Of a DNA stretch of 44,578 nt, positions 4,658 through 36,668 are shown in pieces (positions within the stretch are counted from its first letter, which is position 1; the number at the start of each line of letters is the position of its first letter). A program made the translations under genes and the position numbers. The stretch is from Candidatus Moraniibacteriota bacterium (GTDB lineage Bacteria; Patescibacteriota; Minisyncoccia; Moranbacterales; UBA1568), in assembly GCA_049289395.1 (NCBI GenBank), contig JBATLQ010000015.1, forward strand, positions 1 through 44,578, read 5' to 3'. The notes under the pieces were generated by a model. The model saw only the letters and a list, made by a program, of their open reading frames with translations, searched no databases and was not told the origin of the DNA.

Positions 4658-5260
4658 ATGAATAAAGGAATTTTCGTCGTAGGGGGGTTGGTCGTGGTGG
4701 CAGTAGTCGGGAGCTGGTGGTACCTCTCTTCGGAGAAGGCTATGGAAGAAAAAGCGATGATGGCGGAGAAAGCGGCTATGGAAGAGAAGGTCATGATGGA
4801 ACAGAAGGCGATGAAGGAGAAGTCCGCCGCCGATATGGCCATGCAGGAGAAAGCGGCGATGGAAAAAAAGACAGCGATGCAACAGGAGATTCCTCCTGTC
4901 ACGGGGAATGAGGCGATGATGAAGAAAGAAGAAAGCGCGATGATGATAAAAGGGGGTCAGTATATGCCCTATGATGCATCGAAGCTCGCCTTCGCGAAGG
5001 ATGGCAAGGTGGTACTCTTCTTCCGTGCATCCTGGTGTCCGACTTGTCGCGCTTTGGATGCCGATATCAAGGCGAAACTGAGTCAGATTCCGCAAAATGT
5101 ACTTATCCTCGATGTCGATTATGATAAGTACACGGATCTGAAGAAGCAGTATGGAGTGACCTATCAGCATACTTTGGTGCAGGTGGATACCTCGGGCAAT
5201 ATGATAACCAAATGGTCCGGGAGTGCGGATCTGGGTGAGCTCTTGAAGCAGGTGAAATAA
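4658..5260 (+). CDS. membrane-anchored thioredoxin-family protein with Met/Lys/Glu-rich linker
   Basis: N-terminal TM GIFVVGGLVVVAVVGSWWY, then a Met-rich low-complexity segment, then a C-terminal Trx fold with WCPTC. Confidence 0.8.
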   Translation: MNKGIFVVGGLVVVAVVGSWWYLSSEKAMEEKAMMAEKAAMEEKVMMEQKAMKEKSAADMAMQEKAAMEKKTAMQQEIPPVTGNEAMMKKEESAMMIKGGQYMPYDASKLAFAKDGKVVLFFRASWCPTCRALDADIKAKLSQIPQNVLILDVDYDKYTDLKKQYGVTYQHTLVQVDTSGNMITKWSGSADLGELLKQVK

Positions 5261-6628: not shown

Positions 6629-7843
6629 ATGAATATATCGCGATGGAGTATAGGGATGTTTCTTGTCGGAGCGATTGTTGTCGGCGGGGTCTTTCTCTCG
6701 GGAAAGTATCGAAGTGTTTCGGATATCAAGATTCCGAGTATTCCGAAGCAGAGCTGTTTGGAAAAAAATAACGAAAAACATATGAAAAAAACGACCGAAG
6801 AACTCGCACAGTACAAAAAGGCATACTTCGCTGGCGGGTGTTTCTGGTGTACGGAATCGGATCTGCAGAAAGCGCCGGGCGTTATCGAGGTGGTATCGGG
6901 TTATGCCGGCGGTCATATCGAGAATCCTACCTATGGTGATGTCACGAGTGAGCAGAGCGGTCATCGGGAGGCGGTGGAAGTGTATTACGATGATACGGTG
7001 ACGAATTTCGAGCGGCTCGTACAGTATCACCTCATGCATATCGATCCGACGGATGCGGGCGGGCAGTTTTATGATCGTGGCGAGAGTTACCAGGCGGTGA
7101 TCTTCTACACAACGGATGAAGAACGGTCGATTGTTGAAAAATCTCTCCGGGAGCTCGGCGATGCGCGGGTATTTGAAAAAACGATCGCCGTGAGGGTTCT
7201 CCCATACAAGAATTTCTATACGGCAGAGGAATATCACCAGAACTATGCCGAGGAGAATACCGTGAAGTACTGCGCGTATCGGGAATCAAGCGGACGGGAT
7301 GCATTCCTCCAGAAGTATTTCGGCGGGAAAACATGGGAGCAACTGACGATGTCATCCGTTTCTTCTGCCGTACAATCATCTGTTGACAAGAAAGATTTCT
7401 CGCATTTCGTGAAGCCAAGTGATGCGGAGTTGCGGGCAAAATTGACGGATATCCAATACGATGTCACACAGAAAAATGGCACGGAAAAGCCATTTCAGAA
7501 CGAGTACAATGAGAATCATGAAGCAGGAATCTATGTCGATATCGTCAGTGGCGAGGCTTTGTATTCATCGAGGGACAAATATGACAGTGGTACCGGTTGG
7601 CCGAGTTTCGTCCGACCAATTGATCCCGACTCTATTGTGGAGAAGGTTGATAATGGATTGTTCAGTACGCGTACTGAGATACGGAGTAAGTATGGTGATG
7701 ATCATCTCGGACATGTCTTCAATGATGGGCCGGCCGATCGCGGTGGCAAACGGTATTGTATGAATTCTGCTGCGCTCCGATTTATCCCTCTGGCAGATAT
7801 GGAGAAGGAAGGATATGGCGCGTATATTTCGAGCGTCGAGTAA
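6629..7843 (+). CDS. msrAB: membrane-anchored bifunctional methionine sulfoxide reductase MsrA-MsrB
   Basis: N-terminal anchor [16 protein letters not shown]. MsrA motif GGCFWCTE. MsrB motifs [17 protein letters not shown] and RYCMNSAAL. Confidence 0.9.
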
Positions 7844-8005
7844 TAGACCTGTTGCCTTATAAGCTCCAGTTAAAAATGCCATCTTTCGCCATATCCTTGG
7901 GAAAATATTTTTGGCTTAGCTTCGGCTAAACAAAAAATATTTTCCCAGCGGCTCTGTCTGAAATCTGCCGATTTTTACCAAGAAGCCTATAAGGCAACAG
8001 GTCTA
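7844..8005. repeat. 162-bp foldback (MITE-like) element, copy A
   Basis: Terminal inverted repeats TAGACCTGTTGCCTTATA / TATAAGGCAACAGGTCTA. The two halves are diverged reverse complements, with a central 22-bp hairpin at 7899-7946. Starts immediately after the msrAB stop. Confidence 0.85.
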
Positions 8006-8026
8006 ATGAACATTCACGGAAACTCA

Positions 8027-8035
8027 TGATATACT
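8027..8035 (+). promoter_or_regulatory. extended -10 element TGaTATACT upstream of cbiM
   Basis: tcaTGaTATACTgg lies 28 nt upstream of ATG 8064. Confidence 0.4.
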
Positions 8036-8063
8036 GGAGGAGTTATTATTCTATTCATGAGAT

Positions 8064-8816
8064 ATGCATATACCAGATGGATTCCTCAATAATGGGGTGG
8101 CAGGGAGTCTCATGGGAGCGGCGATCGGCGCGGTGGTTTTCTCGTTGCGAAAGGTTCGCAGGGGCTTCCTCGAGAAAGTGCCAGCACTGAAACAAAAGCT
8201 CGCGACTTTTCCTTCCTTTGATGGGAATTCGGAGATGAGCCTTCAGAATAGGATATCCAAAATGGGACAGGAGAAAATGTGGCGGATAGCGACCGTCGGA
8301 TCACTCATTTTCTCCGCACAGATGGTGAATTTCCCGATCAGTGGTGGGACATCGGGGCATTTGCTCGGGGGGGTACTCGCCGCACTCATCCTCGGACCGT
8401 TCGAGGCAATACTCGTCATGACGATTATCCTCTCGACGCAGGCATTGATGTTCGGAGATGGCGGTATGCTCGCTCTCGGTGCGAATATCTTCAATATGGG
8501 TATCGTCGGCGCGCTTGGCGGATATGGTTTTTTCCGTTTCCTTATGCGGGGGAAAATTGAGAAGAAAGGGTTTCTGCGAAGTGCATTTGTCGCGGCGTGG
8601 GTTTCGGTTATCGCTGCGAGTGTCGTTACTTCTTTTGAAATCGCTGTTTCCGGAACTCAGGATCTGTCAATCGTGCTCCCTGCTATGACACTGACGCATA
8701 TCGCTATCGGCTGTATGGAGGGAGTCATCACTGCCACCGCACTGTCCCTGTTGATGAAGAGAGGGTATCGGCTCGCAGTATTTGAAAAACAAGCACCAGA
8801 AACCTATGCAGAATAA
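8064..8816 (+). CDS. cbiM: ECF-type cobalt/nickel uptake substrate-capture component CbiM/NikM
   Basis: Hallmark N-terminus MHIPDGFL. Also FSAQMVNFPISGGTSGHLLGG and LMFGDGGMLALGANIFNMGIVG. Confidence 0.9.
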   Translation: MHIPDGFLNNGVAGSLMGAAIGAVVFSLRKVRRGFLEKVPALKQKLATFPSFDGNSEMSLQNRISKMGQEKMWRIATVGSLIFSAQMVNFPISGGTSGHLLGGVLAALILGPFEAILVMTIILSTQALMFGDGGMLALGANIFNMGIVGALGGYGFFRFLMRGKIEKKGFLRSAFVAAWVSVIAASVVTSFEIAVSGTQDLSIVLPAMTLTHIAIGCMEGVITATALSLLMKRGYRLAVFEKQAPETYAE

Positions 8817-9135
8817 TTGGAAAAGAATCCTCATCGTATCGCTGTTTATCGGTGGTGGTCTCTCACTCCTCGCATCCTCATCTCCAGATGGACTGGAGAA
8901 AGTTGCGGCAGAGCAAGGATTTTTGGAACAAGGCAGGCAACTGTTCACCGCGACTATCCCTGATTATATGATGCCGGGTATTCAGAATGAACCGTTCGCG
9001 ACATCACTCGCGGGTATCATCGGCACGCTCTCTGTTTTCCTCATACTTTTTTTCGCTGGAAAAGTTTTGTATCGAACGAGGTGTGGCGAGGAGGATACTC
9101 ATCAACCCTTGACATCGAGCGGGCGTCTCTCATGA
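8806..9135 (+). CDS. PDGLE-domain membrane protein (CbiN-like accessory)
   Basis: TM, then SSPDGLEKVAAEQGF, then a C-terminal TM LAGIIGTLSVFLILFF. Start set at ATG 8806, an 11-nt overlap with cbiM. Confidence 0.75.
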   Translation: MQNNWKRILIVSLFIGGGLSLLASSSPDGLEKVAAEQGFLEQGRQLFTATIPDYMMPGIQNEPFATSLAGIIGTLSVFLILFFAGKVLYRTRCGEEDTHQPLTSSGRLS

Positions 9136-9149
9136 TAGGATAGACAGTA

Positions 9150-9158
9150 TGCTACAAT
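9150..9158 (+). promoter_or_regulatory. extended -10 element TGcTACAAT
   Basis: agtaTGcTACAATaa lies 27 nt upstream of ATG 9186, and is the same 11-mer as at 2903-2913. Confidence 0.4.
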
Positions 9159-9185
9159 AAACAGGTAATTAGTAAGGCAAATAAC

Positions 9186-9740
9186 ATGGAAGAGCTTATC
9201 AAGAAAGCAACCGATGCCGTAGTCGCGTCTTTGAAAGGAGCGGACAAGATCTATGATACGATGTTCGACATCGTGAAGGGGAATGTGGTAGATATTTTCA
9301 AGGGAACGGGAGATGTCGCAACTGCCGGAAGTGGCGCGGTTGTTAAAATTGTCGCGAGTCTCATCGAGGGAGTTTCGGAAATTGGAGGCGAAGCAGGCGA
9401 AGCGACACAGAAAGTCGTCATGGGAACGCTGAAGGGTATCGCCGAAGTCGGTGGAGACACAGCCGGAGTAATCGAAGACTCTGTTCGTGGAGCGATTCGT
9501 GGGACGAGTGAGGTCGGTGGAGATCTCGGCAAGGCAGCGGTAGGAGCCGTGGAAGGTGCCGTGAAGTCAGCCGAAGAAATCGGCCTTAGTACGGAAGATG
9601 CTCTGAAGAATGCGATTTCAGGAGCTATTACGGGAGCTGGGGAAGTCGGAGGGAGCGCCATTCAAGTCGTTACAGATGCTTTGACCGCTTCGGTCAAGGG
9701 TGCGAAGGAGATTCTCAGTGCGCCTTTCGATGCGAAGTAA
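9186..9740 (+). CDS. hypothetical protein built of eight 22-residue Gly/Val/Ala/Glu repeats
   Basis: Units such as VMGTLKGIAEVGGDTAGVIEDS, VRGAIRGTSEVGGDLGKAAVGA and ISGAITGAGEVGGSAIQVVTDA tile almost the whole 184 aa. No signal peptide or TM. Confidence 0.6.
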   Translation: MEELIKKATDAVVASLKGADKIYDTMFDIVKGNVVDIFKGTGDVATAGSGAVVKIVASLIEGVSEIGGEAGEATQKVVMGTLKGIAEVGGDTAGVIEDSVRGAIRGTSEVGGDLGKAAVGAVEGAVKSAEEIGLSTEDALKNAISGAITGAGEVGGSAIQVVTDALTASVKGAKEILSAPFDAK

Positions 9741-9745
9741 GGAGT

Positions 9746-9907
9746 TAGACCTGTTGCCTTATAGGCTTCTTGGTAAAAATCGACAGATTTCAGACAGAGC
9801 CGATGAGAAAATATTTTTTGTTTAGCCATAGCTAAGCCAAAAATATTTTCTCAAGGATATGGCGAAAGGTGGCATTTTTAACTGGAGCTTATAAGGCAAC
9901 AGGTCTA
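9746..9907. repeat. 162-bp foldback (MITE-like) element, copy B (reverse complement of copy A)
   Basis: Hand alignment of B with the reverse complement of A gives 155/162 identical and no indels. Confidence 0.85.
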
Positions 9908-9920
9908 TTGATTGAAGTAG

Positions 9921-9952
9921 AACAAGAGACCCCTAGAGGTCTCTTGTTTTTT
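9921..9952 (+). terminator. intrinsic terminator
   Basis: AACAAGAGACC-cctaga-GGTCTCTTGTT (11-bp perfect stem) followed by TTTTGT. Confidence 0.8.
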
Positions 9953-10031: not shown

Positions 10032-11036
10032 ATGGGGATAGTAGAAAAATTTCCCGTACCAAAACCGATTGGAGGCACAGAGAGGGCTACGAATCCTAAA
10101 TTGATTCAACATGTGACGAGTACGGTAGAGGTGCGGAATACTCAGGGTATCGTGATTCAAACCATATCAGTTGAAGAATATTCTCCATCCAAAGAGAATC
10201 AAAAGAGCGACCGACCGGTTCTCGTGGTGCCGGGTTATACTGAGGGACCGAGAACACTTGAGGAAAATCAGCGAGAAACTGCTTTGCTGGGACGAAAAGC
10301 CTTTACTTTTGATGCTCAAAGGGGTATATCGAATGGAGGAGGGGATCCTGCTGATCTGCTCCGTCTGAAGCGCGAGGGATTCCACGAGTATGAGATCAAA
10401 AAGGCGCAAGCTTTATTGGAAGTTGTTCGCCAGAAAGGAATAGGTAAAAAGGAATTAGATGCCATTGGGCATTCGGAAGGATGTATTTATCTCGTGCTGG
10501 CGGCACTTGCCAACCCAGTGCCATTTCATACGCTTCTCCTCGTCAATCCGGGCGGGATGGTCGGGCAAGACAACTTCTTTTCGCTGATTGATCGTGCCTA
10601 CAAGCATTCGAAAAAAGAGCGGGAGATGATACAAAGGAATCCGGATTTGAAAAAAGTGCATGATATCGGGAAGAGTGAGCGGGTAAAGAATTTGACACAG
10701 AGCATTATGACTGGTATTTCTGCTCCGAGGGCGATTGCGTGTACGCAAATCCGGGAATTGCTCGTTCTCCTCAAGGAGAAGGGTGTTCGTATCGTGATTG
10801 CTCACTCAGTAGATGATGAAATATTCCCGATGGATGAGGTGCGAAAGATGTCCGCTGAGGGTATCGATGGATTCTACTCTATCAATATGAATCTCGGGCA
10901 TAATGGCTATTTCTTGGACCCCAAGACGCACGCCTTTCTCGCCGAGCATACTTTTTCGGGGATTGAAAAAAGAGAAGAGAGGGAGGCGGCAGAAAAACAG
11001 GGTTTTCCTGCATCAGAAGAGCGATTGGCGGCATAG
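10032..11036 (+). CDS. alpha/beta-fold hydrolase
   Basis: Nucleophile elbow IGHSEGC (GxSxG), plus later HSVDDEIFP and LGHNGY as candidate acid and His residues. Confidence 0.65.
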   Translation: MGIVEKFPVPKPIGGTERATNPKLIQHVTSTVEVRNTQGIVIQTISVEEYSPSKENQKSDRPVLVVPGYTEGPRTLEENQRETALLGRKAFTFDAQRGISNGGGDPADLLRLKREGFHEYEIKKAQALLEVVRQKGIGKKELDAIGHSEGCIYLVLAALANPVPFHTLLLVNPGGMVGQDNFFSLIDRAYKHSKKEREMIQRNPDLKKVHDIGKSERVKNLTQSIMTGISAPRAIACTQIRELLVLLKEKGVRIVIAHSVDDEIFPMDEVRKMSAEGIDGFYSINMNLGHNGYFLDPKTHAFLAEHTFSGIEKREEREAAEKQGFPASEERLAA

Positions 11037-11170: not shown

Positions 11171-14100
11171 GTGCGAATCTCTCGTTTTTTGCGTAGGGAA
11201 TCTTCGCACAGGATGGTATTTTTGGGTACATTTTTGAATACTTTTTTCGGAATGGTACGCGTAAAAGAAAAAATAAAAATACAGAAGAAATTGCCCGCTT
11301 CAAAGGAGCGTCTTTCTGTTGTCAAAAAGACAAAAAAGAAAGAAAAAGAAAAAGCCCCGGCGACAGGGAAATCAATATCTACTCGGTCTCGTTCTCTCAA
11401 GAAGAAAGTCATTCGCTCAAAGTCCCTTCCTGATGCAGTGGATGCCTCAGTGGTTTCCTTGAAAAAACCAGTCACTCAGCCATTGTTTCAGAAAAAAGTG
11501 ATTTTCCAGAAAAGAACAATCGTTTCGACGAAAATGCAGATTTTTGACAGGGAAACGGAGGGTCGGACACTGTTGCGTCGCTTTATAGAAAAGTCATCCA
11601 TACACCAGAATGTTCAAATAATACCTGAAGAAAGCCAAAATAATAAGGAGTGTTTGCATGGTATCGCGAATACCTCTTCGGAGACGGTATCCTCACGACG
11701 ACGATCCACTCTTCGTCCGGTGGGCGGGAGAGGGAATGCTCTTCGGAACAAACTGAGCCTCCTTCGGGGATCTCTGCTCTCTTTTGGGAAACTTCAGAAC
11801 ACAGAAGAGGCATTGTTCTCCCGCTGGAAAGTGTATGTGACCAGAGAGATTCTCCGATGGAGAGTAGAGATAAAGCAGGGGATTCCTCCTGAAGGAGAGC
11901 CAAGACAGCGAGTAATCATAGAAGCGGAAAGTCTGACTGAATTTCTGGACACATATGTGGTGACTCGGAGGGAAAGTTATGGGAAGGCCTATGTGAGGCG
12001 TTTGTATTTCTCTCGCGTGTGTGAACAGATACAGAAGACAACCGTATCTTTGGGGAAAATAATCGGGGCATTCTCATGGAGGAGCAGTATTATCGCGATG
12101 GTCGCGATCGCCGCCGTGTATATCGGTGGAATGAATGTATCGGGCGCGCCATTTGCCCGGACCATTACCACGGAAACCGAGTGGGGTCTCGGGACGACGA
12201 CTAATCTGTCACTGGAGAGTGCCACCGACGCCATACAGTTAGCATCGGATGGGAGCTGGTCAGCCCGTACCTGGGCAGTGCCACCCGATACCGTGAGCGC
12301 CGGATCAAGTTCAATCTTCGTTGGTGATAATCTCTATGTGATACGGGGACTATCAGATAAGGCATTTTGGAAGTATGATTCCGTACTGAATGAATGGGTA
12401 GAGCTTTCGGATTTGCCATTCCCTGCTTACTATGGCGCTGATATGGTTGCTGATAGTACTAACGGTCTCCTTTATGTGATTTTCGGTGGTTTTTCGAAAA
12501 AGTTCTATTCGTATGAAATAGCGACAGATACATGGATCGAGCTTCCGGAGCTCCTCGATACACCGTGGACCGGAGCAAGTATTGGTTTTGATGGGACGAA
12601 CCCCTTCGTTCTTCGAGGAAACAATAGTACGGATTTTTGGAAGTATAATGTCGCTTTGAATGAGTGGCAGAGTTTGGCACCGAGTACGTTAGCTGTTTCG
12701 ACTGGGGCGAACCTCGTGTATGGATACGATGGGAATTTTTACACACCACGTGGTGCTAATACAGTGACGTTCTATCGCTACAACATTGCCAGCAACACCT
12801 GGAGTACTCGTACAAATATCACCACTGGACAGAATTTCAATGGCGATCAGAAGGGTGCCTATGCCAATGGTTATATTTACTATGCTCGTTCGGCTAATAC
12901 GACGGGGTTTCTTCGTTATGACATTGTGGGTAATAGTTGGACAGTGTTGGCTACGACACCAGCTGCCGCCAACTATACCTCGGTTGCTTTCAATGCCAAT
13001 GACAACCTGCTCTACATGCTTCGCTCCAACAATACGTATGATTTGTGGAAGTTTGATCCGACTATTGGTGCGACGGGAGATTGGGTTGGTCCTCAGCAGG
13101 TGATGAACAATACTATTACGATGAGTACAGGAAGCGACCTCATCTGGAACGAGGTGACGGGTGCTGGAGGATATATGTATGCGGTACGTGGTGGGACACT
13201 CAATTTTTACCGTTACGACATGACAGCCAATACTTGGTCTGCTATGGCCAACTTGCCGGCGACGGTGACGGCGGATACAAACTGTACTTATAATGGGGGG
13301 TATGTCTACTGTCCTCGTGGTACAAATACCACGACCTTTTATCGCTACACGGTTGCGTCCAATACCTGGGCAACGGTGACAGCAGCACCAGGTACGGTGA
13401 GTAACGGTGGTGGGGCGTCTTACAATGCTTCGACAAATAGGGTGTATCTCCTTCGTGGTAATGGCACCGCTAATTTCTACAGTACCGATGTGGCAGTGGG
13501 ACCATGGACAACACTGGCTAATACGGTGGTTGATGGGGTCACGTACGCCATCAATATTGGTGGGAAACTCATTTCTGATGACACAGATCTCTATGCTACG
13601 GTGGGAAACGGTGAAACGGCGTTTTTGAAATTCGATACTGTCGCTGGGACGTGGTCGACATTGGCTCCAACTCCATTTGCTCAGTACTACGGAACAACCA
13701 TGACGCACGCAAGTGGAAAGATTTATGCTTTGGCTGGCTACTACAAGGATGAAACCTGGGAGTACACTATCGCTACCGATACCTGGAGGATGTTGCCTTC
13801 GAACCAAAAGTATCTGTATGGTCGTGGACCGTATAACGGAGCTGATATCGAATACGCTGGGGGCAATTCCTTTTATGCTTTGACAGGTTTATCGACTACT
13901 GACATGTGGAGCTTCACATCGGGGACCAATAATTTTGTTAGTACGGGGAGCTATGTGAGTGAAGCACTGGATATGGCACAGGTGACTGACTGGGTCTCTT
14001 TTGTAGCAAGTGATACCACTCCCGCCAATACCAGTATCGTGTATGAGACGCGCACCAGTACTGATGCGAGTTCCTGGTCAGCGTGGGAAGCGGTGGTAGG

Positions 14101-17100
14101 AACGACTATTGCCTCACCAGCTCAGCGGTATATCCAGGTACAGATGACACTCGCCACGAGTGATGGGGTAAGTACGCCGACGGTGTCTGATTATACGATT
14201 ACCTACAATAACTCTGACACACCACCGACCAATCCGACTGCTGTCAATGCGTATTCACAGATTTCAGGCGGGGTAACACTCACTTCTGGTAGTACTTATC
14301 TCTATGAACATCCGTACTTTACGTTCTCTGGTGCCAGTAGTCCGGAGGCAGGCGTGGAAGGGTACTATGTCTACTTTGGTACCAATGCCAGTGCTGACCC
14401 GGTAGCAGACGGATCATTTCAGGCGAGTACTGCCTATGAAGTGAACCAGGCACTGGATGCTACCACCTACTATCTGCGTATTAAGACTCGGGATAATAAT
14501 GGCAATGTGAGTGCTGGGACGTACTCGGCCTTCACCTATATCTATAATGGAGTGGCTCCGGCTCTGGTCGAGACCAAGACGAGCCAGGCTGATTTCTCAG
14601 CCGGGACGCTCTCGAATGTATCTGCGACTGATGTGACCGATGCATTGCGACTCTCTGCCAGTGGTAGTTCTGGGTTTTGGAACCAGACAAGAATAACCAA
14701 CTCACTAGCAGGCATGAATTATGGGAGTGATTCAGTCCAAGTGAATTATGGGGGCACTGATTATATCTTCGCTTTGCGCGGTGGTAATTCGACAGGATTT
14801 TATCGGTACACAATAGCGACTGATACGTGGACATCGATGGCGGTGACACCGGGCAATGTGGGCTATGGAGGGTCTATCGAAGCTGGACCAGGCGATGTTT
14901 TGTATGCTACTCAGGGAGGAAACCTACCAACTTTTTGGAAGTATGATATTGCCCTTAATACCTGGAGTGCGGTATCGAGCGCTCCGAAAAACTTCTATAT
15001 TGGAGGATCGATTTCGTATGATGGATCACGGTATATCTATGGCCTCCCAGGGAGTGATGATGCGTTCTATCGTTATGATACGACAGGAGATACCTGGAGT
15101 GCGCGTGCCAATGCACAGTTTGGCAACCCAAATACCGTTGATGGTCAGCTGGTGAACTATGATTCGGACAGTGTGTATGATGGACGCAACAATATTTATG
15201 TGATGCAGGGTAACTACTACCCGTATTTTGCCAAGTACTCCATTGCCACCGACGCTCTGTATGGTGAAACCGCCAATACCTGGACGGTACTCGCTTCAGC
15301 GCCAACAGGAGTCTATACAGGAGGCAGTCTCGCCTATGATACGACAACCGACAGTGTGTACATGACGCGAGGGAACTGGAAAAGCAACTACTACAAATAT
15401 GCTGTTGAAACCAATAGTTGGTCTCAACTCCCAGATACGCCGACGACCTTTGGGCAGGGCGCTTCGCAGATAGTGTACAACGGATATATCTATGCGCTTG
15501 GTGGTAATAATACAGCGAGTTTCTATCGGTATAATATTGCCGAAACTTCGTGGGAAATTCCAACTATGGGAATTTTCGGACCTGCTGTACCGAGCACTAC
15601 GGCCTATTTCCCATACTCCTATGGTACTTTTGCTGTCTCCGATGAAGGTGAGAACCTCTACATCGTTCGTGGTTCCTATGACAATGTCTTTGTCCGGTAC
15701 AATGTGACAACAGGAGTGACGACAGAAATGGCTCGACTACCGGTAGGTGCCTATGACGGATCGTCACTTGTGTATGTCGGTAATCACAATGAAATCTACT
15801 ATTCACCAGGAGCCATCGGTACCACTCGATTGACTGGAAGCAACTATTTCTTCAAATATGATATTCCGACTAATACCTGGAGTGAGATAACCACTGATCG
15901 TCCGCCAGTACAGGTCGGTGCCGGTTCGAGTATGACCTATGATGGGACGCAGTATATCTACCTGACGCGCGGAGCAGGTCAGACCACTTGGTGGCGCTAT
16001 GATCTCAATGCTATCGCGGGATCTCGTTGGTCAGTAATGTCTACTGTTGGGGCGCCAAACGTCACGACTGGTGGTGAGATGGTGTACAACGGCGGATATA
16101 TATATTCTATTCGTGGTGGGAATAACGCGAACTATCGCTATGATATCAACGCGGGTACGTGGGCGACCATGCCAGTTTTGCCAGCCACTATTAGTTCAGG
16201 TGGCAGTATCGCCGATGGCCATGACGGATACATTTATACGACCCGTGGAGCCAATACCTCTAATTACTATCGTTATTTGTTGGCAGATGGTCTCGCTGGG
16301 ACATGGGAAGCGGTGACAGATGTTCCAGCTCAGGTCAATATTGGTGGCTTTCAGAAGCATTTGAGTAACCGTAATTGGGTCACTGCTGGGAATGGTACTA
16401 ATTCTTACCCTGATGGGCTGTATAGTTATGTGGTCAGTTCGACGGGTAATGGCACAGGATTTCAGAAAACCGGTACGTATACCTCAGAAACACTGAATCT
16501 AGTCTCAGTGTATAAATGGGCAAATTTTTCGGCCAATTATACGCTCCCGAACAATACGTTTGTGACATTTGAAACCAGGACATCCGCTGATGGAGCGACA
16601 TGGGATAACTGGACGAATATTTCGAATGAACAGGTGCTTGGAACGACTCATACATTCAAAATAAACTCAGCGCCTAATGGATACCTACAGGTGCGAGCAA
16701 ACCTCTCTTCATCAGATCGAATCTTTTCTCCGTTGATCACGGATTATTCCGTGAGCTATTATCAGGATGTTACCGAACCGACAAATCCAAGTGCTGTGAG
16801 CGCTTATACGAGCGTGGCCAAGACGGCCGGCATCACGACTAATACTTGGTATAATCACACGGCACCATACTTTGAATGGCCGGCTGTCGATGGGGTCGGT
16901 GGAGCGACAGATGGGTCTGGTGGCTCGGGAGTAGCAGGGTACTACGTCTACTTCGGTACCGATAGCAATGCCGATCCCGTGGCATTTCAGACGACGAATA
17001 CTTATACGGCGAGTGGTCTCTCGGCGGGACAGAGTTATTATCTGAAGATCATGACCGAAGACAATGCCGGCGTTATAACGGCGAGCTCGTATAGTGCGTT

Positions 17101-19267
17101 CACTTATAAATTTGACAATATCGCTCCGATCAATCCATCGGTTATTTCAGTGCTCCCGACTGGTTATACGGCTATCGACAATTTTGCTTTTACTTGGTCG
17201 GCGGATGCATCTGATTTGTTTTCGGCCATAGCGAAAATCCAGTATCGCACCGATGGAGATATCGCGGACACTTGGATAGATATCTTGGATGTCAATCAGG
17301 TTTCACTCACTATACCGAATGTGGATCATATCGTCGGCGCTTATCAATCGGGGAAAAACAAATTTTACCTCCGCGTTGTGGATGGCGCCGGAAATGTTTC
17401 GCCACCGCTCCTCCAGGAGTATTACTTCAGTGCCAGTGCCCCGACTCCACCACAGATCCTCGCCGCGACACCGACCACCTCATCCAATAACTCATTCGCC
17501 TTCTCATGGGATATCCCTTCCTCATATGCCGGAGATCCGACGAAAATCGTGTATCACTATTCCGTCAATATCCTCCCTACCGCGAATAACTCAGTGTCAA
17601 CAGCAGCCAAAGCGGCTGGGCCGAGTGCTTTCGCGACCCAAAAGGGCGACAATCTTTTCTTCGTCGTTGCCGAAGATGAATCGGGAAATATAGAATGGGG
17701 GAATTATGCTTCCGTCACTTTCACCGCTGATACGAGCAATCCTCCTATCCCGGGCAATGTGCAGATATTCGACACCTCGGATCGGGAAAATTCTAAGTAT
17801 GGTATCGCGGTGAAGTGGGCGAGGCCAGACGGCATTGATTCCGCGAACTTCGATGGCTTCGTAATCTATCGTTCTGAGGACAATGTGACATTCGCCGAAA
17901 TCGCGAAGACGACAGGAAGCGCATATGTCGACTCGGGTGAAATCGTACTTCCATCGGGAGATACGACGCTCGAGAGTAAATTGTATTACTACTACATCAA
18001 ATCCAAGGATAAGACGAGTAATTATTCAGCGGCTTCTTCGACGGTGTCAATTGTTCCGACCGGGAAATATACGACTGCTCCGAAGCTCGTCGGGACGCCG
18101 AGTTACACCACGCAATCCTTCCTCGCGACTTTTAAATGGGCGACGGATCGAGTTGCGAGCTCGTTTATCGAGTATGGCAAGTCGATTTCTCTGGGGGAGA
18201 CAACCGGACAGGTAGATTCCGTGACGACTCACGAAGTGCTCGTGAAGGGTCTCGATGCTGGCACGAAGTATTTCTATCGAGTGAAATATATCGATCCCGA
18301 TGGGAATATCGGTACATCGACGGTGGATACCGTTACCACACTACCACCGCCGGTTATCTCAGATTTGACGATTACAGACATTCAGTTGAATACGGCGTAT
18401 GTCAGTTGGACGACCAATGTGAGCGCGACCTGTACCCTTGAGTATGGTGCCTACAGCATCGAGGAAACATCGGGTGGCTCGAGTCATGTACAAAAGATTG
18501 ACAAGCTTCAGCCAGCTTCTGATTACTCCGTACAGATTTCTTGTATTGACGGTGATCTCAATACATTTTCATCCGATCAGTATGCCTTCAGTACTCCGGA
18601 AGAGCCCCTGGTTTCCGATGTGACTATAGAAAATAAGGAGAATGTCGATCTCCCGACGATTACAATCGCATACAAGACAAATGTCCCGACTTCAACTCTG
18701 ATATACTATAAGTCAGGTGGAGAGAGTAATCATACCTACCTCACCGAAGATCTGGTGACAGAACATTCGGCTGAAATTTCTGATTTGAATCCGGCGGTAG
18801 AATATACCATCTCTGTTGCTGGAAAGGATGAGCACAATATCCAGACGACACCATTCGAACAGAAAATCACCACGCGTACGGATTCACGACCGCCGAAAAT
18901 ACTTGAAAATAAGGCGATGGGACGGGTGTCAGGACGGGGCGCGAGTGCCCAGGCGAGTGTGTATATAAAGATTGAGACGGATGAAGTGTCGAAGATTCAT
19001 GTTGCCTATGCAAAGGGGATTGTCACGAAGTCGTTCGAGCAGTCAACGAGCGATGATTCGTTCAATACCTATCACCTCATTACGATCCCAGCTGAGGCGG
19101 GTGACGTGTATAGTTATCAGGTAGAGGCGTATGATGAGGCTGGAAACAAAACCACAACAGATGCGGCGACTGTTCCAGTCGAACAATCCAAAGCGAATGC
19201 CACCGAGGTTATCACGAGAACATTCCTCAACAATTTCGGATGGATTTCGAGGTTGACCGGAGGGTAA
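11171..19267 (+). CDS. giant (2698 aa) N-terminally anchored surface protein: K/R-rich N-terminal region, one TM, 2 x 12 Kelch-like blades, jelly-roll-like and FN3 domains
   Basis: GTG start with a strong SD. TM SSIIAMVAIAAVYIGGMNV at aa 305-323. 24 repeats of the F(Y/W)(R/K)Y..x..(N/D)TW..L type. Two GYYVYFGT..ADPVA FN3 units. Four C-terminal FN3/PAP-N-like units (e.g. FKWATDRVASSFIEYG...YFYRV). Confidence 0.85.
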   Translation: MRISRFLRRESSHRMVFLGTFLNTFFGMVRVKEKIKIQKKLPASKERLSVVKKTKKKEKEKAPATGKSISTRSRSLKKKVIRSKSLPDAVDASVVSLKKPVTQPLFQKKVIFQKRTIVSTKMQIFDRETEGRTLLRRFIEKSSIHQNVQIIPEESQNNKECLHGIANTSSETVSSRRRSTLRPVGGRGNALRNKLSLLRGSLLSFGKLQNTEEALFSRWKVYVTREILRWRVEIKQGIPPEGEPRQRVIIEAESLTEFLDTYVVTRRESYGKAYVRRLYFSRVCEQIQKTTVSLGKIIGAFSWRSSIIAMVAIAAVYIGGMNVSGAPFARTITTETEWGLGTTTNLSLESATDAIQLASDGSWSARTWAVPPDTVSAGSSSIFVGDNLYVIRGLSDKAFWKYDSVLNEWVELSDLPFPAYYGADMVADSTNGLLYVIFGGFSKKFYSYEIATDTWIELPELLDTPWTGASIGFDGTNPFVLRGNNSTDFWKYNVALNEWQSLAPSTLAVSTGANLVYGYDGNFYTPRGANTVTFYRYNIASNTWSTRTNITTGQNFNGDQKGAYANGYIYYARSANTTGFLRYDIVGNSWTVLATTPAAANYTSVAFNANDNLLYMLRSNNTYDLWKFDPTIGATGDWVGPQQVMNNTITMSTGSDLIWNEVTGAGGYMYAVRGGTLNFYRYDMTANTWSAMANLPATVTADTNCTYNGGYVYCPRGTNTTTFYRYTVASNTWATVTAAPGTVSNGGGASYNASTNRVYLLRGNGTANFYSTDVAVGPWTTLANTVVDGVTYAINIGGKLISDDTDLYATVGNGETAFLKFDTVAGTWSTLAPTPFAQYYGTTMTHASGKIYALAGYYKDETWEYTIATDTWRMLPSNQKYLYGRGPYNGADIEYAGGNSFYALTGLSTTDMWSFTSGTNNFVSTGSYVSEALDMAQVTDWVSFVASDTTPANTSIVYETRTSTDASSWSAWEAVVGTTIASPAQRYIQVQMTLATSDGVSTPTVSDYTITYNNSDTPPTNPTAVNAYSQISGGVTLTSGSTYLYEHPYFTFSGASSPEAGVEGYYVYFGTNASADPVADGSFQASTAYEVNQALDATTYYLRIKTRDNNGNVSAGTYSAFTYIYNGVAPALVETKTSQADFSAGTLSNVSATDVTDALRLSASGSSGFWNQTRITNSLAGMNYGSDSVQVNYGGTDYIFALRGGNSTGFYRYTIATDTWTSMAVTPGNVGYGGSIEAGPGDVLYATQGGNLPTFWKYDIALNTWSAVSSAPKNFYIGGSISYDGSRYIYGLPGSDDAFYRYDTTGDTWSARANAQFGNPNTVDGQLVNYDSDSVYDGRNNIYVMQGNYYPYFAKYSIATDALYGETANTWTVLASAPTGVYTGGSLAYDTTTDSVYMTRGNWKSNYYKYAVETNSWSQLPDTPTTFGQGASQIVYNGYIYALGGNNTASFYRYNIAETSWEIPTMGIFGPAVPSTTAYFPYSYGTFAVSDEGENLYIVRGSYDNVFVRYNVTTGVTTEMARLPVGAYDGSSLVYVGNHNEIYYSPGAIGTTRLTGSNYFFKYDIPTNTWSEITTDRPPVQVGAGSSMTYDGTQYIYLTRGAGQTTWWRYDLNAIAGSRWSVMSTVGAPNVTTGGEMVYNGGYIYSIRGGNNANYRYDINAGTWATMPVLPATISSGGSIADGHDGYIYTTRGANTSNYYRYLLADGLAGTWEAVTDVPAQVNIGGFQKHLSNRNWVTAGNGTNSYPDGLYSYVVSSTGNGTGFQKTGTYTSETLNLVSVYKWANFSANYTLPNNTFVTFETRTSADGATWDNWTNISNEQVLGTTHTFKINSAPNGYLQVRANLSSSDRIFSPLITDYSVSYYQDVTEPTNPSAVSAYTSVAKTAGITTNTWYNHTAPYFEWPAVDGVGGATDGSGGSGVAGYYVYFGTDSNADPVAFQTTNTYTASGLSAGQSYYLKIMTEDNAGVITASSYSAFTYKFDNIAPINPSVISVLPTGYTAIDNFAFTWSADASDLFSAIAKIQYRTDGDIADTWIDILDVNQVSLTIPNVDHIVGAYQSGKNKFYLRVVDGAGNVSPPLLQEYYFSASAPTPPQILAATPTTSSNNSFAFSWDIPSSYAGDPTKIVYHYSVNILPTANNSVSTAAKAAGPSAFATQKGDNLFFVVAEDESGNIEWGNYASVTFTADTSNPPIPGNVQIFDTSDRENSKYGIAVKWARPDGIDSANFDGFVIYRSEDNVTFAEIAKTTGSAYVDSGEIVLPSGDTTLESKLYYYYIKSKDKTSNYSAASSTVSIVPTGKYTTAPKLVGTPSYTTQSFLATFKWATDRVASSFIEYGKSISLGETTGQVDSVTTHEVLVKGLDAGTKYFYRVKYIDPDGNIGTSTVDTVTTLPPPVISDLTITDIQLNTAYVSWTTNVSATCTLEYGAYSIEETSGGSSHVQKIDKLQPASDYSVQISCIDGDLNTFSSDQYAFSTPEEPLVSDVTIENKENVDLPTITIAYKTNVPTSTLIYYKSGGESNHTYLTEDLVTEHSAEISDLNPAVEYTISVAGKDEHNIQTTPFEQKITTRTDSRPPKILENKAMGRVSGRGASAQASVYIKIETDEVSKIHVAYAKGIVTKSFEQSTSDDSFNTYHLITIPAEAGDVYSYQVEAYDEAGNKTTTDAATVPVEQSKANATEVITRTFLNNFGWISRLTGG

Positions 19268-21452: not shown

Positions 21453-22376
21453 TCACCTCTTCCTCTTCGTCGCATGGAATTTCCTATGCGTTTCTTTCAA
21501 GTATTCATTCGAAACATGGGTGTAGATCTGGGTGGTGGTGATGGAAGAGTGTCCGAGCATAGTCTGCACGCTTCGGATATCCGCACCATTCTGCAGGAGG
21601 TCGGTCGCGAAACTGTGACGCAGGGTATGCGGGTGGACATCCTTCACGATACCGGCCTTGGTCGCATAGTGTTTCACGAGTCGTTGGATGCTCCGTGGCG
21701 TCAGCCGAAGTGTCTTGCGACTACTTCGTTCAGGATTTTTCGGAAAGGAGACGAAGAGCGCCGGGTCGATGTCGTCTCGGAGCTTTAGATAAGTCTCTAT
21801 CGAGTCTCTCGCTTCGGGGGAGAGGAAGACGATGCGGAGCTTGCTCCCTTTGCCACGAACACTGAATTCTTCTTTGGTGAGGTTCACATGATCGCGGTTG
21901 AGATTCGTGAGTTCGGACACACGGAGCCCTGCCGAGAAGAGGAGTTCCAGAATGGCGTGGTCGCGGAGTGACTTGCGGTCGTCTCCTCCTGCGGCGGCGA
22001 TGAGTCGCTCCACCTCATCGTATTCGAGGTATTCGATCTCTCGCATGGGAGTTTTGCCGATTTCCACTTTCTCGGCAGAGACGCATTCGACATCATCTTT
22101 GGCGAGAAATTTGAGAAAAGACCTGAGGACGACGACATGGAAAGCCTGGGTTACTTTCTTCATATTTCCTCCTCGGCCGTTTTCAGAGCGGTTGAGGAAA
22201 ATCCGATATTCGCGGATTTTTTCCAGAGTGATATCACTCGGCTCCTCGGCTCCAGACCAAGTCAGGAACTTTTCGAGGGAGCGATGATAATTGGAGAGGG
22301 TGCGCGGAGCACGGTCAAGTTCGATCTCGAGGTGTTCGAGGTAGCGAGTGACGAGTTTTTGGAGGGGAGTTTTCAT
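21453..22376 (-). CDS. tyrosine site-specific recombinase, XerC/XerD family
   Basis: AGLRVSEL, KGSKLR, HTLRHSFAT and LGHSSITTTQIYTHV supply the R..K..HxxR..H..Y catalytic pattern. Confidence 0.9.
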   Translation of the reverse strand: MKTPLQKLVTRYLEHLEIELDRAPRTLSNYHRSLEKFLTWSGAEEPSDITLEKIREYRIFLNRSENGRGGNMKKVTQAFHVVVLRSFLKFLAKDDVECVSAEKVEIGKTPMREIEYLEYDEVERLIAAAGGDDRKSLRDHAILELLFSAGLRVSELTNLNRDHVNLTKEEFSVRGKGSKLRIVFLSPEARDSIETYLKLRDDIDPALFVSFPKNPERSSRKTLRLTPRSIQRLVKHYATKAGIVKDVHPHTLRHSFATDLLQNGADIRSVQTMLGHSSITTTQIYTHVSNEYLKETHRKFHATKRKR

Positions 22377-24026: not shown

Positions 24027-24062
24027 ACGGTCGTTCCGCTTTTTGAGCGGTGCGACCGCTGT
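24027..24062 (+). repeat. post-stop hairpin repeat, canonical copy 1
   Basis: ACGGTCGTTCCGCTTTTTGAGCGGTGCGACCGCTGT. Stems CGGTCG/CGACCG and CCGC/GCGG surround the loop TTTTTGA. Begins 47 nt after the LysM-CHAP stop. Confidence 0.8.
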
Positions 24063-26047: not shown

Positions 26048-26082
26048 GCGGTTGTTCCGCTTTTTGAGCGGTGCAACCGCTA
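26048..26082 (+). repeat. post-stop hairpin repeat, copy 2
   Basis: GCGGTTGTTCCGCTTTTTGAGCGGTGCAACCGCTA. The outer stem is CGGTTG/CAACCG, a compensated variant of CGGTCG/CGACCG. Begins 43 nt after the cysS stop. Confidence 0.8.
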
Positions 26083-28602: not shown

Positions 28603-28638
28603 ACGGTCGTTCCGCTTTTTGAGCGGTGCGACCGCTGT
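28603..28638 (+). repeat. post-stop hairpin repeat, copy 3
   Basis: 36/36 identical to copy 1. Begins 14 nt after the typA stop. Confidence 0.8.
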
Positions 28639-28695: not shown

Positions 28696-28716
28696 AAAAT
28701 CCTCTGTTTTGCGCGA

Positions 28717-33071: not shown

Positions 33072-33262
33072 ATGATTCAGTGATACAATTATTAGACAAT
33101 GTTCATAAAACACAAAACATCAAAACACAAAGACCAAACAAAACACAAAACACAGTTTTCAAACAATACGCTTTCTTCATTTGATTCATTGAAACATTGA
33201 AAATTGTTTAGAAATTATCTTCTCATCCCTCATCCAATATCCAATATCTATTATCTCCTCCT

Positions 33263-35743: not shown

Positions 35744-36538
35744 ATGGGTCTCATCGGACTGCTTATCACGGTACTTCTCATGATCCTCGGAGCGGGGTAT
35801 TTTCTGTTTGGTACTTCGAGTGGACCGATTACGCTGGAGAATAAGAATACAGAACAACCATCCGTCGCGGATATAACGACGGGTGCGGGAGAGATCGCGC
35901 GGTATCAGGCAATCCGGGATCAAGCGCAGGGAGTCAGTAAACAGGTAACAGAAAACAGTAAACAATTAGCAGAAAGCATAGAACAGGGGATAGCAAACAG
36001 CGAACAAGGAACAGTCAAAACAGCGGTCGTTCCGCTTTCGAGCGGTGCATCCGCTGTTGGGAAGGAAAAAACAGATTTGAACATTATCGACCGGAAAGTG
36101 GATTTCGGATTCGGCGTTCCGAAAGAGAAGCGAATGATTGATACGGTCGTACTCCACTCATCCTATAACTCCATAGGGGGCGACCCATACTCGGTGAACA
36201 AGGTAATAGATATTTGGCGGGGATATAGTGTCGCACCACATTACATGATCGATCGGAAGGGGAATATCTATCGTCTCGTCGATGACGCGAATATTGCCTA
36301 TCATGCGGGTGTGTCGAAACTGCCGGATGGGCGGACGAATGTGAATGATTTCTCCATTGGTATCGAGATCCTGAATACGAAGGAGGACAAGTATACGGAG
36401 GCAGAGTATGACGCGGTGAATACTCTCATCGCATACCTCCGCGGAAAATACAGTATCAAGCAAGTCGTCGGTCACGCCGACATCGCCCCGGGGAGGAAGG
36501 ATGACCCGTGGCATTTTAACTGGAAACAGTTAAAATGA
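35744..36538 (+). CDS. membrane-anchored N-acetylmuramoyl-L-alanine amidase (Amidase_2/PGRP type)
   Basis: N-terminal TM LIGLLITVLLMILGAGYFLF, a linker, then HYMIDRKGNIYRLV, AYHAG, NDFSIGIEILN and VVGHADIAPGRKDDP. Confidence 0.8.
   Translation: MGLIGLLITVLLMILGAGYFLFGTSSGPITLENKNTEQPSVADITTGAGEIARYQAIRDQAQGVSKQVTENSKQLAESIEQGIANSEQGTVKTAVVPLSSGASAVGKEKTDLNIIDRKVDFGFGVPKEKRMIDTVVLHSSYNSIGGDPYSVNKVIDIWRGYSVAPHYMIDRKGNIYRLVDDANIAYHAGVSKLPDGRTNVNDFSIGIEILNTKEDKYTEAEYDAVNTLIAYLRGKYSIKQVVGHADIAPGRKDDPWHFNWKQLK
36020..36057 (+). repeat. copy of the hairpin repeat embedded in-frame in the amidase linker
   Basis: ACAGCGGTCGTTCCGCTTTCGAGCGGTGCATCCGCTGT. The loop is TTTCGA instead of TTTTTGA, which removes the TGA. 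Translated as TAVVPLSSGASAV. Confidence 0.65.
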
Positions 36539-36553
36539 AAACACAAAAATGAA

Positions 36554-36654
36554 AAACACAAAGTCCAAACAAAACACAGGAAACAAAACTTAAAACAAGA
36601 GAGTTTGTGATTTTTGGAAATTGAAATTTGTGTTTTGTTTGGTTTTTGTGCTTT
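36554..36654. repeat. long imperfect hairpin with CA-rich and TG-rich arms
   Basis: Arms of about 26 bp, AAACACAAAGTCCAAACAAAACACA / TGTGTTTTGTTTGGTTTTTGTGCTTT (2 mismatches, 1 wobble), with a 49-nt loop. An arm homolog lies at 33104-33150. Confidence 0.65.
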
Positions 36655-36668
36655 GATGATTGTGTTTT

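Follow-up and report, generated by a model that had tools for sequence, protein, structure and literature searches.

Inverted 160-bp MITEs on both sides of a native operon for cobalt/nickel uptake in a Moranbacteria-like bacterium of the CPR: two very probably independent insertions

Introduction

Several kinds of small foldback elements resemble the pair of repeats described here. The closest are the MITEs of the IS5/PIF-Harbinger (DDE_Tnp_4) group, such as the Tourist-like mPing. Like the present family, they are short, non-coding, AT-rich foldbacks with conserved terminal inverted repeats and a 3-bp target duplication with palindromic outer positions; they have ends and duplication in common with ~1-kb autonomous elements that encode HTH_Tnp_4 and DDE_Tnp_4 domains, and they favour AT-rich intergenic sites beside genes. 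Target duplications of IS5-family (sensu lato) and PIF-Harbinger-like transposons are short, 2-4 bp and typically 3 bp. The target is T-W-A (TAA or TTA) in PIF/Harbinger/Tourist elements and T-N-A in the IS1031 group. Compared to mPing, which uses TAA, the present family targets A-N-T (AAT or ATT), for which nothing decisive was found in the ISL2/IS1031 literature. Its hosts are CPR bacteria and cyanobacteria, unlike those of Tourist-like MITEs derived from IS5/PIF-Harbinger elements, which are eukaryotic.

The IS630/Tc1-mariner (Stowaway-like) MITEs are also small foldbacks with terminal inverted repeats, and the apparent TA ends of the present elements recall them. However, the duplication here is 3 bp rather than TA, and the IS630-family elements recovered from the same metagenomes (the inner IS of locus L042, and L087-L098) end in TACCAT...ATGGTA, which differs from the ends of the present family. 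A third comparison is with Nezha and ISNpu3 of the Nostocales. Nezha is described as a MITE of cyanobacteria, 130-170 bp long and predicted to form a stable hairpin; an IS found in Nostoc punctiforme has been proposed to mobilise it. Its direct repeat is ~10 bp (CATTATCTAC in one quoted copy) against 3 bp here, and identity with Nezha/ISNpu3 was rejected on this difference in length.

Correia, ERIC, RUP, and similar bacterial foldback elements are likewise intergenic, 100-160 bp long, and bounded by terminal inverted repeats; transcribed together with the genes beside them, they can influence how the mRNA is processed. Their termini and target duplication differ from those of the present family, and they are confined to narrow host groups, whereas the present family spans CPR classes and cyanobacteria. 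The present elements form a new MITE family of a known sort. No description of MITEs in CPR/Patescibacteria was found in the literature searched.

Features of the locus

The window is the whole stretch of DNA analysed, 44.5 kb long. The relevant features, with their strands where they have one, are as follows.

6629-7843, plus strand: msrAB, a fused PMSR and SelR gene (Pfam PMSR 1.5e-53, SelR 8.3e-46), with a TAA stop codon at 7841-7843
7842-7844: left target duplication of copy A (AAT), overlapping the msrAB stop codon
7845-8004, plus strand: MITE copy A, a non-coding foldback with a 160-bp core AGACCTGTTGCCTTATAAG...CTATAAGGCAACAGGTCT
8005-8007: right target duplication of copy A (AAT); the -35-like TGAACA starts on its T
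8007-8035, plus strand: promoter-like site of cbiM, TGAACA-17-TATACT, with a TG-extended -10; empty-site relatives keep the -10 region
8064-8816, plus strand: cbiM, substrate component of an ECF-type Co/Ni transporter (Pfam CbiM 2.3e-53)
8806-9135, plus strand: PDGLE-domain (CbiN-like) gene (Pfam PDGLE 5.5e-18), of 109 aa in identical Logan contigs
9186-9740, plus strand: 184-aa Gly/Ala/Val-rich repeat protein matching no Pfam family; relatives have a 184-aa gene in the same place
9744-9746: left target duplication of copy B (GTT, as at the empty site of relatives)
9747-9906, minus strand: MITE copy B, 160-bp core, inverted relative to copy A, between the last operon stop codon and the terminator
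9907-9909: right target duplication of copy B (ATT), with one mismatch to the left one
9921-9952, plus strand: intrinsic-terminator-like hairpin and T-run, outside copy B
10032-11036, plus strand: downstream alpha/beta-hydrolase-like gene, whose homologues match Abhydrolase_1

The first-pass annotation, made from the sequence alone, had described two 162-bp inverted foldbacks with 18-bp perfect terminal inverted repeats, and this description stands. On realignment, copy A (7844-8005) matches copy B (9746-9907), read as its reverse complement, at 155 of 162 positions with no indels, against 75/162 in direct orientation, and a repeat search lengthens the arms to 7842-8006 and 9745-9909 (165 nt, 96% identity). 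The window contains exactly four instances of the 18-mer TAGACCTGTTGCCTTATA, one at each copy end, against 0.03 expected by chance. Each copy is predicted to fold back on its own into a near full-length hairpin, as had been proposed (copy A, -64.4 kcal/mol, z = -8.4; copy B, -77.0 kcal/mol, z = -11.6). The positions given for the copies, one base past the msrAB stop codon for copy A and 5 nt past the stop of 9186-9740 for copy B, also agree with the coordinates.

The gene calls for the fused PMSR and SelR protein, CbiM, and PDGLE were right by Pfam. Of two promoter-like elements that had been suggested, the one at 8027-8035 falls in the site at 8007-8035, and the one at 9150-9158 is absent from the promoter scan. 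The terminator placed outside copy B does consist of a palindrome (9921-9948) followed by a T-run, but the consensus terminator scan did not list it; the hairpin is kept, with compensatory changes, in relatives that lack copy B. The cbiM-PDGLE-184-aa block has the same GC content as the window (0.506 vs 0.495), so that composition is neutral as to joint movement of the block with its flanking repeats.

Element boundaries and target duplication

The true cores of the two copies are 160 bp each, AGACC...GGTCT, flanked by a direct 3-bp duplication with the consensus A-N-T, mostly AAT or ATT. The apparent TA at both ends of each copy lies outside the element: the T closes the left copy of the duplication and the A opens the right one. 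The duplication is perfect for copy A (AAT/AAT) and imperfect for copy B (GTT/ATT, two of three positions).

Evidence for this reading came from the family at large. Among 35 distinct copies, 25 have identical trinucleotides beside the AGACC...GGTCT core, and the trinucleotides agree position by position in 30, 29, and 34 of the 35; the census was seeded with an exact 18-mer, so that at each exactly matched end one base of the trinucleotide (T or A) is set by the seed, while the middle base and the outer flank bases are independent of it. The pairs are always direct, with AAT/AAT in ten copies, ATT/ATT in nine, and ACT/ACT in three; AAT/ATT never occurs, and the rare trinucleotides AAG, ATA, and ACC are likewise duplicated. 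In 29 of the 35 copies, the duplication takes in the base outside each TA.

The first-pass annotation had considered a TA duplication of the IS630/mariner style, and this is rejected. When 163 bp (the core plus one duplication copy) is removed, the two junctions align with the empty sites of relatives ungapped, at 78/90 and 80/90 positions. Removal of 162 bp or 160 bp gives 50-59/90, and the 160 bp called for by the TA model misaligns both junctions (54/90 and 59/90). The matching autonomous elements, moreover, encode DDE_Tnp_4 transposases that are IS5/PIF-Harbinger-like and not of the IS630 type.

Empty sites in relatives

Relatives L081-L085, with 81-89% DNA identity, are collinear with the window and in the same orientation; both sites are empty, and the terminus 12-mer is missing from them. 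The gene order without either repeat is msrAB-cbiM-PDGLE-184-aa gene-hydrolase-giant protein. In these empty-site relatives msrAB and cbiM are spaced by 54-67 bp, the msrAB orthologs lie directly upstream of cbiM in L082, L084, and L085, and cbiM orthologs of 85-86% identity stand in the same MITE-free context. The cbiM, PDGLE, and 184-aa genes are an ancestral resident operon and not cargo. The first-pass annotation had named conserved gene order in relatives lacking the repeats among the findings that would leave a mobile or invertible nature unsupported, and the repeat-free relatives do keep that order.

A closer relative (L079, 90-91% identical) carries copy B at the B site. Its sequence there is of the B type, identical at 56 of 56 positions including the base that distinguishes A from B. 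Because copy B was already present in a relative this distant, the pair is not a recent duplication.

Exact-protein look-ups with the window genes retrieved nothing but short contigs, which stop within the repeat and are uninformative about orientation. Short-read CPR assemblies repeatedly break at this element: four Logan contigs and one ENA contig end inside it.

Family copies and candidate transposase

Copies A and B are MITEs. Their 160-bp cores have 17-bp perfect termini, terminal inverted repeats, and no ORF of note. The first-pass annotation had offered a MITE reading and proposed a search for further copies of the 162-bp element, and the many copies at unrelated sites in other genomes, together with the empty sites, bear the reading out. 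Upkeep of the foldback through compensatory changes also favours it. The same termini (AGACCTGTTGCCTTATA and TATAAGGCAACAGGTCT, 17 bp) enclose more than 35 distinct non-coding foldbacks of 72-279 bp in genome and metagenome contigs of Parcubacteria, Saccharibacteria, and other CPR bacteria, and in cyanobacteria; two further copies are visible in this genome, from the one 44.5-kb window. Paired identical termini enclose elements of 161-163 bp in two contigs of Parcubacteria GW2011_GWA2_47_26, in a Saccharibacteria MAG, in another MAG whose copy matches copy A at 143 of 162 positions, and in dozens of metagenome contigs. Length variants of 72-74, 139-141, 150, 206, and 279 bp also occur, cyanobacteria included. 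The interiors of the subfamilies are unrelated to one another and to the IS interior, yet their lengths cluster at 159-163 bp.

Lone 18-mer matches in Bacteroides, Parabacteroides, Acidobacteria, Thermoplasmata, gut metagenomes, and four viral contigs were rejected as chance matches in coding DNA or MITEs cut by contig ends. About 17 chance matches are expected in the 596 Gb searched, and none of the lone matches has a transposase inward of the terminus. A paired-termini scan of viral contigs found nothing, a plasmid search with a 74-bp MITE gave nothing real, and the Rfam search returned only a generic long-hairpin match (MIR2670, 30 bits against a threshold of 117).

A candidate source of mobility is a clade of 1-kb IS elements with AGAC(C/T)TGTYG ends and an AAT duplication, which encode HTH_Tnp_4 plus DDE_Tnp_4 transposases. 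Intact relatives on N. punctiforme pNPUN02 and L. boryana pLBX have the ends AGACTTGTCGGG... and AGAGTTGTTGGG... with AAT/AAT flanks; elements at L103 and L105 end in AGAC/AGAG...TGTYG, with AAT/AAT flanks; and Kovacikia and L001 carry copies with the ends AGACCTGTTGGG. These autonomous relatives, rather than the window, give the matches to DDE_Tnp_4 (2e-25) and HTH_Tnp_4 (1e-13), and NCBIfam IS5 models score them at 68-70 bits, below the cut-off of 140. The intact cyanobacterial IS ends (GGGAAATAA) diverge from the MITE ends (CCTTATAA; in short form, AGACCTGTTGCC) past the first 10-11 nt. Among autonomous elements the exact MITE terminus occurs only in the decayed L054, which is 1002 bp long with one perfect family terminus, one matching at 16/19, and HTH_Tnp_4/DDE_Tnp_4 ORFs inside. 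The flanks of L054 and L001 do not match. Autonomous copies were seen only in cyanobacteria and in the one contig L054, and no transposase of the DDE_Tnp_4 clade was found in the 44.5-kb window or in any fetched CPR locus.

Another candidate parent, L042 (1271 bp), has perfect family termini and an IS630-type transposase, and was rejected. Judged by sequence, it is an IS630-family element nested in a MITE, since relatives of its transposase end in TACCAT...ATGGTA and removal of the inner 1109 bp restores a 161-bp MITE plus one base.

Proposed explanation

Copies A and B are very probably two independent insertions of a ~160-bp MITE that flank a native Co/Ni-uptake operon in this Moranbacteria-like CPR bacterium. 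The MITE would have been mobilised in trans by a transposase from the 1-kb IS clade with HTH_Tnp_4 and DDE_Tnp_4, placed in the IS5 family sensu lato and PIF/Harbinger-like. Sequence comparison establishes the match of ends and duplication to the autonomous IS elements, as it does family membership, the 3-bp duplication, and the empty sites; which transposase acted in the CPR host is suggested by that match. Copy A landed in an AAT overlapping the msrAB stop codon, just upstream of the cbiM promoter. Copy B landed, probably in a GTT, past the stop codon of the 184-aa gene and ahead of the operon terminator. Their inverted arrangement is, on this reading, a by-product of the two insertions.

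Alternative explanations

It is possible, though unlikely, that the MITEs are traces of recent DNA traffic that linked CPR episymbionts with cyanobacteria or another host. This idea arises because identical 17-18-bp termini occur in several CPR classes and in cyanobacteria, while the autonomous IS elements were found only outside recognisable CPR DNA.

A role at the RNA level is improbable. Both copies would lie on one mRNA running from msrAB to the terminator. Their 160-nt hairpins would stabilise 3' ends, serve as attenuators, or be RNase III sites; alternatively, the two copies would pair with each other and loop out the operon. Both copies are probably transcribed, because empty-site relatives have no terminator between msrAB and cbiM and copy B lies upstream of the terminator. 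The A:B duplex is predicted at -274.7 kcal/mol, compared to -141.4 for both hairpins together, so that the 162-bp duplex raised in the first-pass annotation is physically possible and thermodynamically favoured. However, each hairpin can form as it is transcribed, 1.7 kb before the partner copy exists, and there is no sign of selection on the pair. Compensatory changes also preserve the foldback throughout the family. Double changes are seen at 12 pairs in the largest subfamily, compared to 3.9 +/- 1.2 in shuffles (0/500) and 0-2 when partners are slid; between the window copies, the change 7900 G>A has a compensating partner in 7945 C>T. Yet this conservation belongs to the whole family at unrelated sites and is explained by transposon biology or concerted evolution of the palindrome rather than by the locus. 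The relatives, furthermore, have the same operon without either element, and Rfam offers no real match. The hairpins might influence transcript stability or termination.

Still less probable is an invertible segment, in which RecA or Xer-like recombination at the 162-bp repeats would flip 8008-9743 and switch expression of the operon. Inverted repeats of 162 bp with 96% identity are an adequate substrate for homologous recombination, and a tyrosine recombinase gene lies at 21453-22376. That Xer-like gene is, however, the nearest recombinase, 11.5 kb off with none adjacent, and it resembles housekeeping XerC/D. The window has the ancestral orientation of the repeat-free relatives, L079 (91%) has B-type sequence at its B site, and the promoter lies inside the segment, which does not give the usual on/off switch by promoter flipping. 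This proposal of the first-pass annotation is therefore not upheld, although a rare inversion may occur.

That the two MITEs jointly move the 1.7-kb cbiM-PDGLE-184-aa block as a composite transposon is scarcely credible: two 96%-identical inverted elements do bracket the block, but in four repeat-free relatives the genes stand in the same order and orientation beside the same neighbours, each copy carries a duplication of its own (perfect for A, two of three positions for B), the outer flanks of the pair (AAT left of A, ATT right of B) do not match, and no locus among ~60 family matches has the block in another context.

Implications

Two independent MITE insertions beside a resident operon, the reading favoured here, bear on annotation and on mobile-element biology. 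First, neither a mobile cassette nor a phase-variable switch is a fitting label for the pair. Second, the cbiM operon is not to be treated as horizontally acquired on present evidence. Third, a palindromic A-N-T target consensus can mimic TA ends and mislead assignment to a superfamily. For the hairpins themselves, compensatory upkeep of a 160-nt structure might, though this is unlikely, reflect some role other than transposition, for instance as the 3'-end hairpin of an mRNA or as a site for RNase III, exapted around operons of this type.

If the doubtful reading of recent DNA traffic were true, the CPR copies would have been moved by a transposase that is rare in CPR bacteria or supplied from outside. 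The family is now cleanly defined by its ends, its 3-bp A-N-T target, its length classes, and a candidate transposase clade, and it can serve as a marker with which to type strains and to follow exchange of CPR bacteria with other phyla.

The repeat pair and its family

The two repeats in the window are a pair of small non-coding foldback transposons (MITEs) in inverted orientation around three genes:

7844–8005, copy A (160-bp core 7845–8004), downstream of msrAB
between the copies, cbiM, a PDGLE gene and the gene for a 184-aa protein
9746–9907, copy B (160-bp core 9747–9906), upstream of a hydrolase gene

Copy A and the reverse complement of copy B were confirmed to be identical at 155 of 162 positions without indels, compared to 75 of 162 in direct orientation, and a repeat search returned inverted arms at 7842–8006 and 9745–9909 (165 nt, 96%). 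Within the window, the 18-mer TAGACCTGTTGCCTTATA is present solely at the four copy ends (chance expectation 0.03). Both copies are predicted to fold into near full-length hairpins (copy A, -64.4 kcal/mol, z = -8.4; copy B, -77.0 kcal/mol, z = -11.6), and of the seven positions at which A and B differ, 7900 (G>A) and 7945 (C>T) form a compensatory pair within the inner stem. Domain searches against Pfam likewise confirmed the surrounding genes (PMSR+SelR, CbiM and PDGLE); the 184-aa protein has no family.

The MITE-like nature proposed in the first-pass annotation was borne out by the recurrence of the paired termini in other genomes and metagenomes. Among genomes sampled at one per species, a scan recovered identical termini 161–162 bp apart in four places:

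Parcubacteria GW2011_GWA2_47_26, two contigs, paired termini 161–162 bp apart
Saccharibacteria MAG, one copy, paired termini 161–162 bp apart
third MAG, one copy, 143/162 identical to copy A

Four cyanobacterial genomes (copies of 139–141 bp) and a further bacterial MAG contain related copies, and a metagenome scan added 57 loci. Once duplicates were removed, 34 distinct elements remained, which fall into nine or more subfamilies. The remaining lone 18-mer matches were rejected as chance occurrences within coding sequence or as copies truncated by a contig end. Subfamily interiors share at most 56–69% identity; nonetheless, their lengths cluster at 159–163 bp, with further length classes of 72–74, 139–141, 150, 206 and 279 bp. 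Near full-length hairpins are formed by the 161–163-bp subfamilies of CPR (Patescibacteria-type) bacteria and by the 72–74-bp class, while the cyanobacterial and longer variants fold less completely. In the largest subfamily, 12 of 58 hairpin pairs carry changes on both sides, compared to 3.9 ± 1.2 in shuffled controls (0/500) and 0–2 when the partners are slid, a pattern indicating that the hairpin is maintained through compensatory change.

Several variant arrangements were also observed among the fetched loci: tandem pairs 165 bp apart (L019:3571–4057, L032, L073), 206- and 279-bp versions with an extra inserted hairpin (L035, L042:4330–4535; L028, L030, L063), and 72–74-bp mini versions consisting of roughly the two termini alone (L036, L044, L060).

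Target duplication and empty sites

The TA ends of the copies had been read as compatible with an IS630/mariner-style TA duplication. This was not supported, as a 3-bp duplication of consensus A-N-T was found instead in 25 of 35 distinct copies and at the window junctions. In most copies, the bases immediately flanking the two "TA" ends match each other, and when all offsets and lengths were tested, the clear best solution was a core AGACC...GGTCT between identical trinucleotides (the same 25 copies). The flanks agree by position in 30, 29 and 34 of the 35 copies, with one of the three positions predetermined, at the exactly matched end or ends, by the exact 18-mer seed, which does not extend to the others. 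The flank repeats are direct rather than inverted (AAT/AAT in ten, ATT/ATT in nine and ACT/ACT in three copies; AAT/ATT in none). What looked like TA ends are thus the T and A of a duplicated A-N-T target, and some copies seemed to begin with G, A or C because the uncommon flanks AAG, ATA and ACC are duplicated too.

CbiM homologues place the source organism with Moranbacteria-like CPR bacteria. On contigs of relatives (L081–L085; one is from NCBI assembly GCA_054403375.1), CbiM is 85–86% identical, and MsrAB, CbiM, PDGLE, the 184-aa protein, the hydrolase homologue and a giant protein (about 2,670 aa) follow one another in this order and in the same orientation, at 81–89% DNA identity. The MsrAB–cbiM gap there is just 54–67 bp, and the terminus 12-mer has zero occurrences in these contigs. 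Because these relatives provide empty sites, the window confirms the 3-bp duplication independently. Deleting 163 bp (core plus one duplication copy) at each window site gave ungapped junction alignments of 78/90 and 80/90, while deleting 162 bp, or the 160 bp of the TA model, left one flank out of register (50–59/90). Copy A reads AAT-core-AAT, its left AAT overlapping the msrAB stop codon; copy B reads GTT-core-ATT, with GTT at the empty site. A closer relative (L079, 90–91% identical) already carries copy B at this site, with B-type sequence. Judged from this conservation, cbiM, the PDGLE gene and the 184-aa gene are resident and syntenic.

In a more distant locus (L086:6363–7722, CbiM 77% identical), cbiM–PDGLE follows an ArsR-type HTH_20/HTH_5 regulator, without the 184-aa gene or an msrAB neighbour; thus, the operon context is conserved within the closer clade only.

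Transcription, inversion and mobility

A promoter-like site for cbiM (TGAACA-17-TATACT, 8007–8035) adjoins copy A but is not created by it, as the T in its -35 hexamer is part of the duplicated target sequence. Copy B comes after the last stop codon and before the conserved terminator. The empty-site relatives lack a terminator in the msrAB–cbiM gap, and both copies are therefore probably transcribed together. An RNA duplex of the two copies would have a greater predicted stability (-274.7 kcal/mol) than both hairpins (-141.4 kcal/mol); however, each hairpin can fold once transcribed, and in relatives the operon does without both elements. Inversion by homologous recombination between the copies would be possible in principle; the nearest Xer-like gene is 11.5 kb away. 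A mobile cassette was rejected, since repeat-free relatives keep the gene order (the outcome named beforehand as refuting), the genes are resident and syntenic, each element has a separate duplication, and the flanks on the outside of the pair are mismatched. The locus is an ordinary pair of independent MITE insertions around a native operon.

Candidate transposase

No HTH_Tnp_4/DDE_Tnp_4 transposase gene was found in the window or the fetched CPR loci. The candidate autonomous element is a 1,002-bp one in locus L054, which has one perfect family terminus and another matching at 16/19, and its interior is filled with frameshifted ORFs carrying HTH_Tnp_4 and DDE_Tnp_4 domains; it has neither a foldback nor a further set of ends. 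Intact relatives (50–63% identical) reside on cyanobacterial plasmids. Those on N. punctiforme pNPUN02 and L. boryana pLBX have the ends AGACTTGTCGGGAAATAA and AGAGTTGTTGGGAAATAG and are both flanked by AAT/AAT, while a Kovacikia copy and a decayed copy in L001, the latter 1.1 kb from the MITE there, have the ends AGACCTGTTGGGAAATAA. The intact IS ends depart from the MITE ends beyond 10–11 nt, and NCBIfam IS5 models match the transposase below cut-off only. Through the common terminal motif and 3-bp duplication, the MITE family is linked to this IS5/PIF-Harbinger-like clade as its candidate partner.

In another locus, L042, an IS630-family transposase (DDE_3, HTH_33, NCBIfam IS630) lies between perfect family termini spaced 1,271 bp apart, and this locus was rejected as an autonomous parent. 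Once its inner 1,109 bp are removed, what is left is a 161-bp MITE plus one base, and L042 is therefore an IS630-like element inside a MITE. Relatives of its transposase (L087–L098) have ends TACCAT...ATGGTA and flanks TAA or TTA. This clade, on CPR-type metagenome contigs (L042:1716–2986; L087–L098), mostly has two overlapping ORFs (HTH, about 168 aa; DDE_3, about 192 aa), with a single 345-aa ORF in L098. Its target duplication appears to be a 3-bp T-W-A instead of the canonical TA, as is visible in the nested L042 copy because the uninterrupted target is known from the MITE consensus.

Other features of the window

Four consecutive + strand genes are each followed, 20–60 bp past the stop codon, by a palindrome of a second repeat family (GGTCGTTCCGCT-TTTTG-AGCGGTGCGACC), which has the appearance of an intergenic REP-like or terminator-like hairpin:

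24029–24057, palindrome
26050–26078, palindrome
28605–28633, palindrome
about 30724, palindrome

Weaker relatives occur at 28716, 36022 and 44528. A 49-nt A/C-rich inverted repeat (33115–33163 and 36613–36661, 84% complementary) surrounds 3.4 kb, is low-complexity AAAACACAAAAC-type sequence and has a related copy in direct orientation at 36538. The protein encoded at 4658–5260 has a thioredoxin domain and, at its N-terminus, a methionine-rich repeat (MEEKAMMAEKAAMEEKVMMEQKAM...); the location of its gene just upstream of a DsbD_TM–thioredoxin fusion and msrAB suggests a methionine-sulfoxide/redox repair cluster. A 2,698-aa ORF (11171–19267) follows the hydrolase gene, as in the empty-site relatives; its counterpart in L081 (about 2,670 aa) has only faint or weak Kelch, fn3 and beta-propeller Pfam matches.

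Comparison with known elements

Compared to Tourist-type MITEs, the family is alike in its candidate DDE_Tnp_4 partner, 3-bp duplication and foldback but differs in its A-N-T target. It is not of the Stowaway/IS630 type because it has neither the TA duplication nor termini in common with that type, and it is not Nezha because the direct repeat of Nezha is about 10 bp. Rfam holds no family for the element, and no description of MITEs in CPR bacteria was found in the literature searched. It is a new MITE family of a known kind. Short-read contigs of this organism and relatives (L075–L079) break about 29–56 bp inside the MITE, which fragments CPR assemblies at this locus, and the distribution of the family across phyla is mildly interesting.
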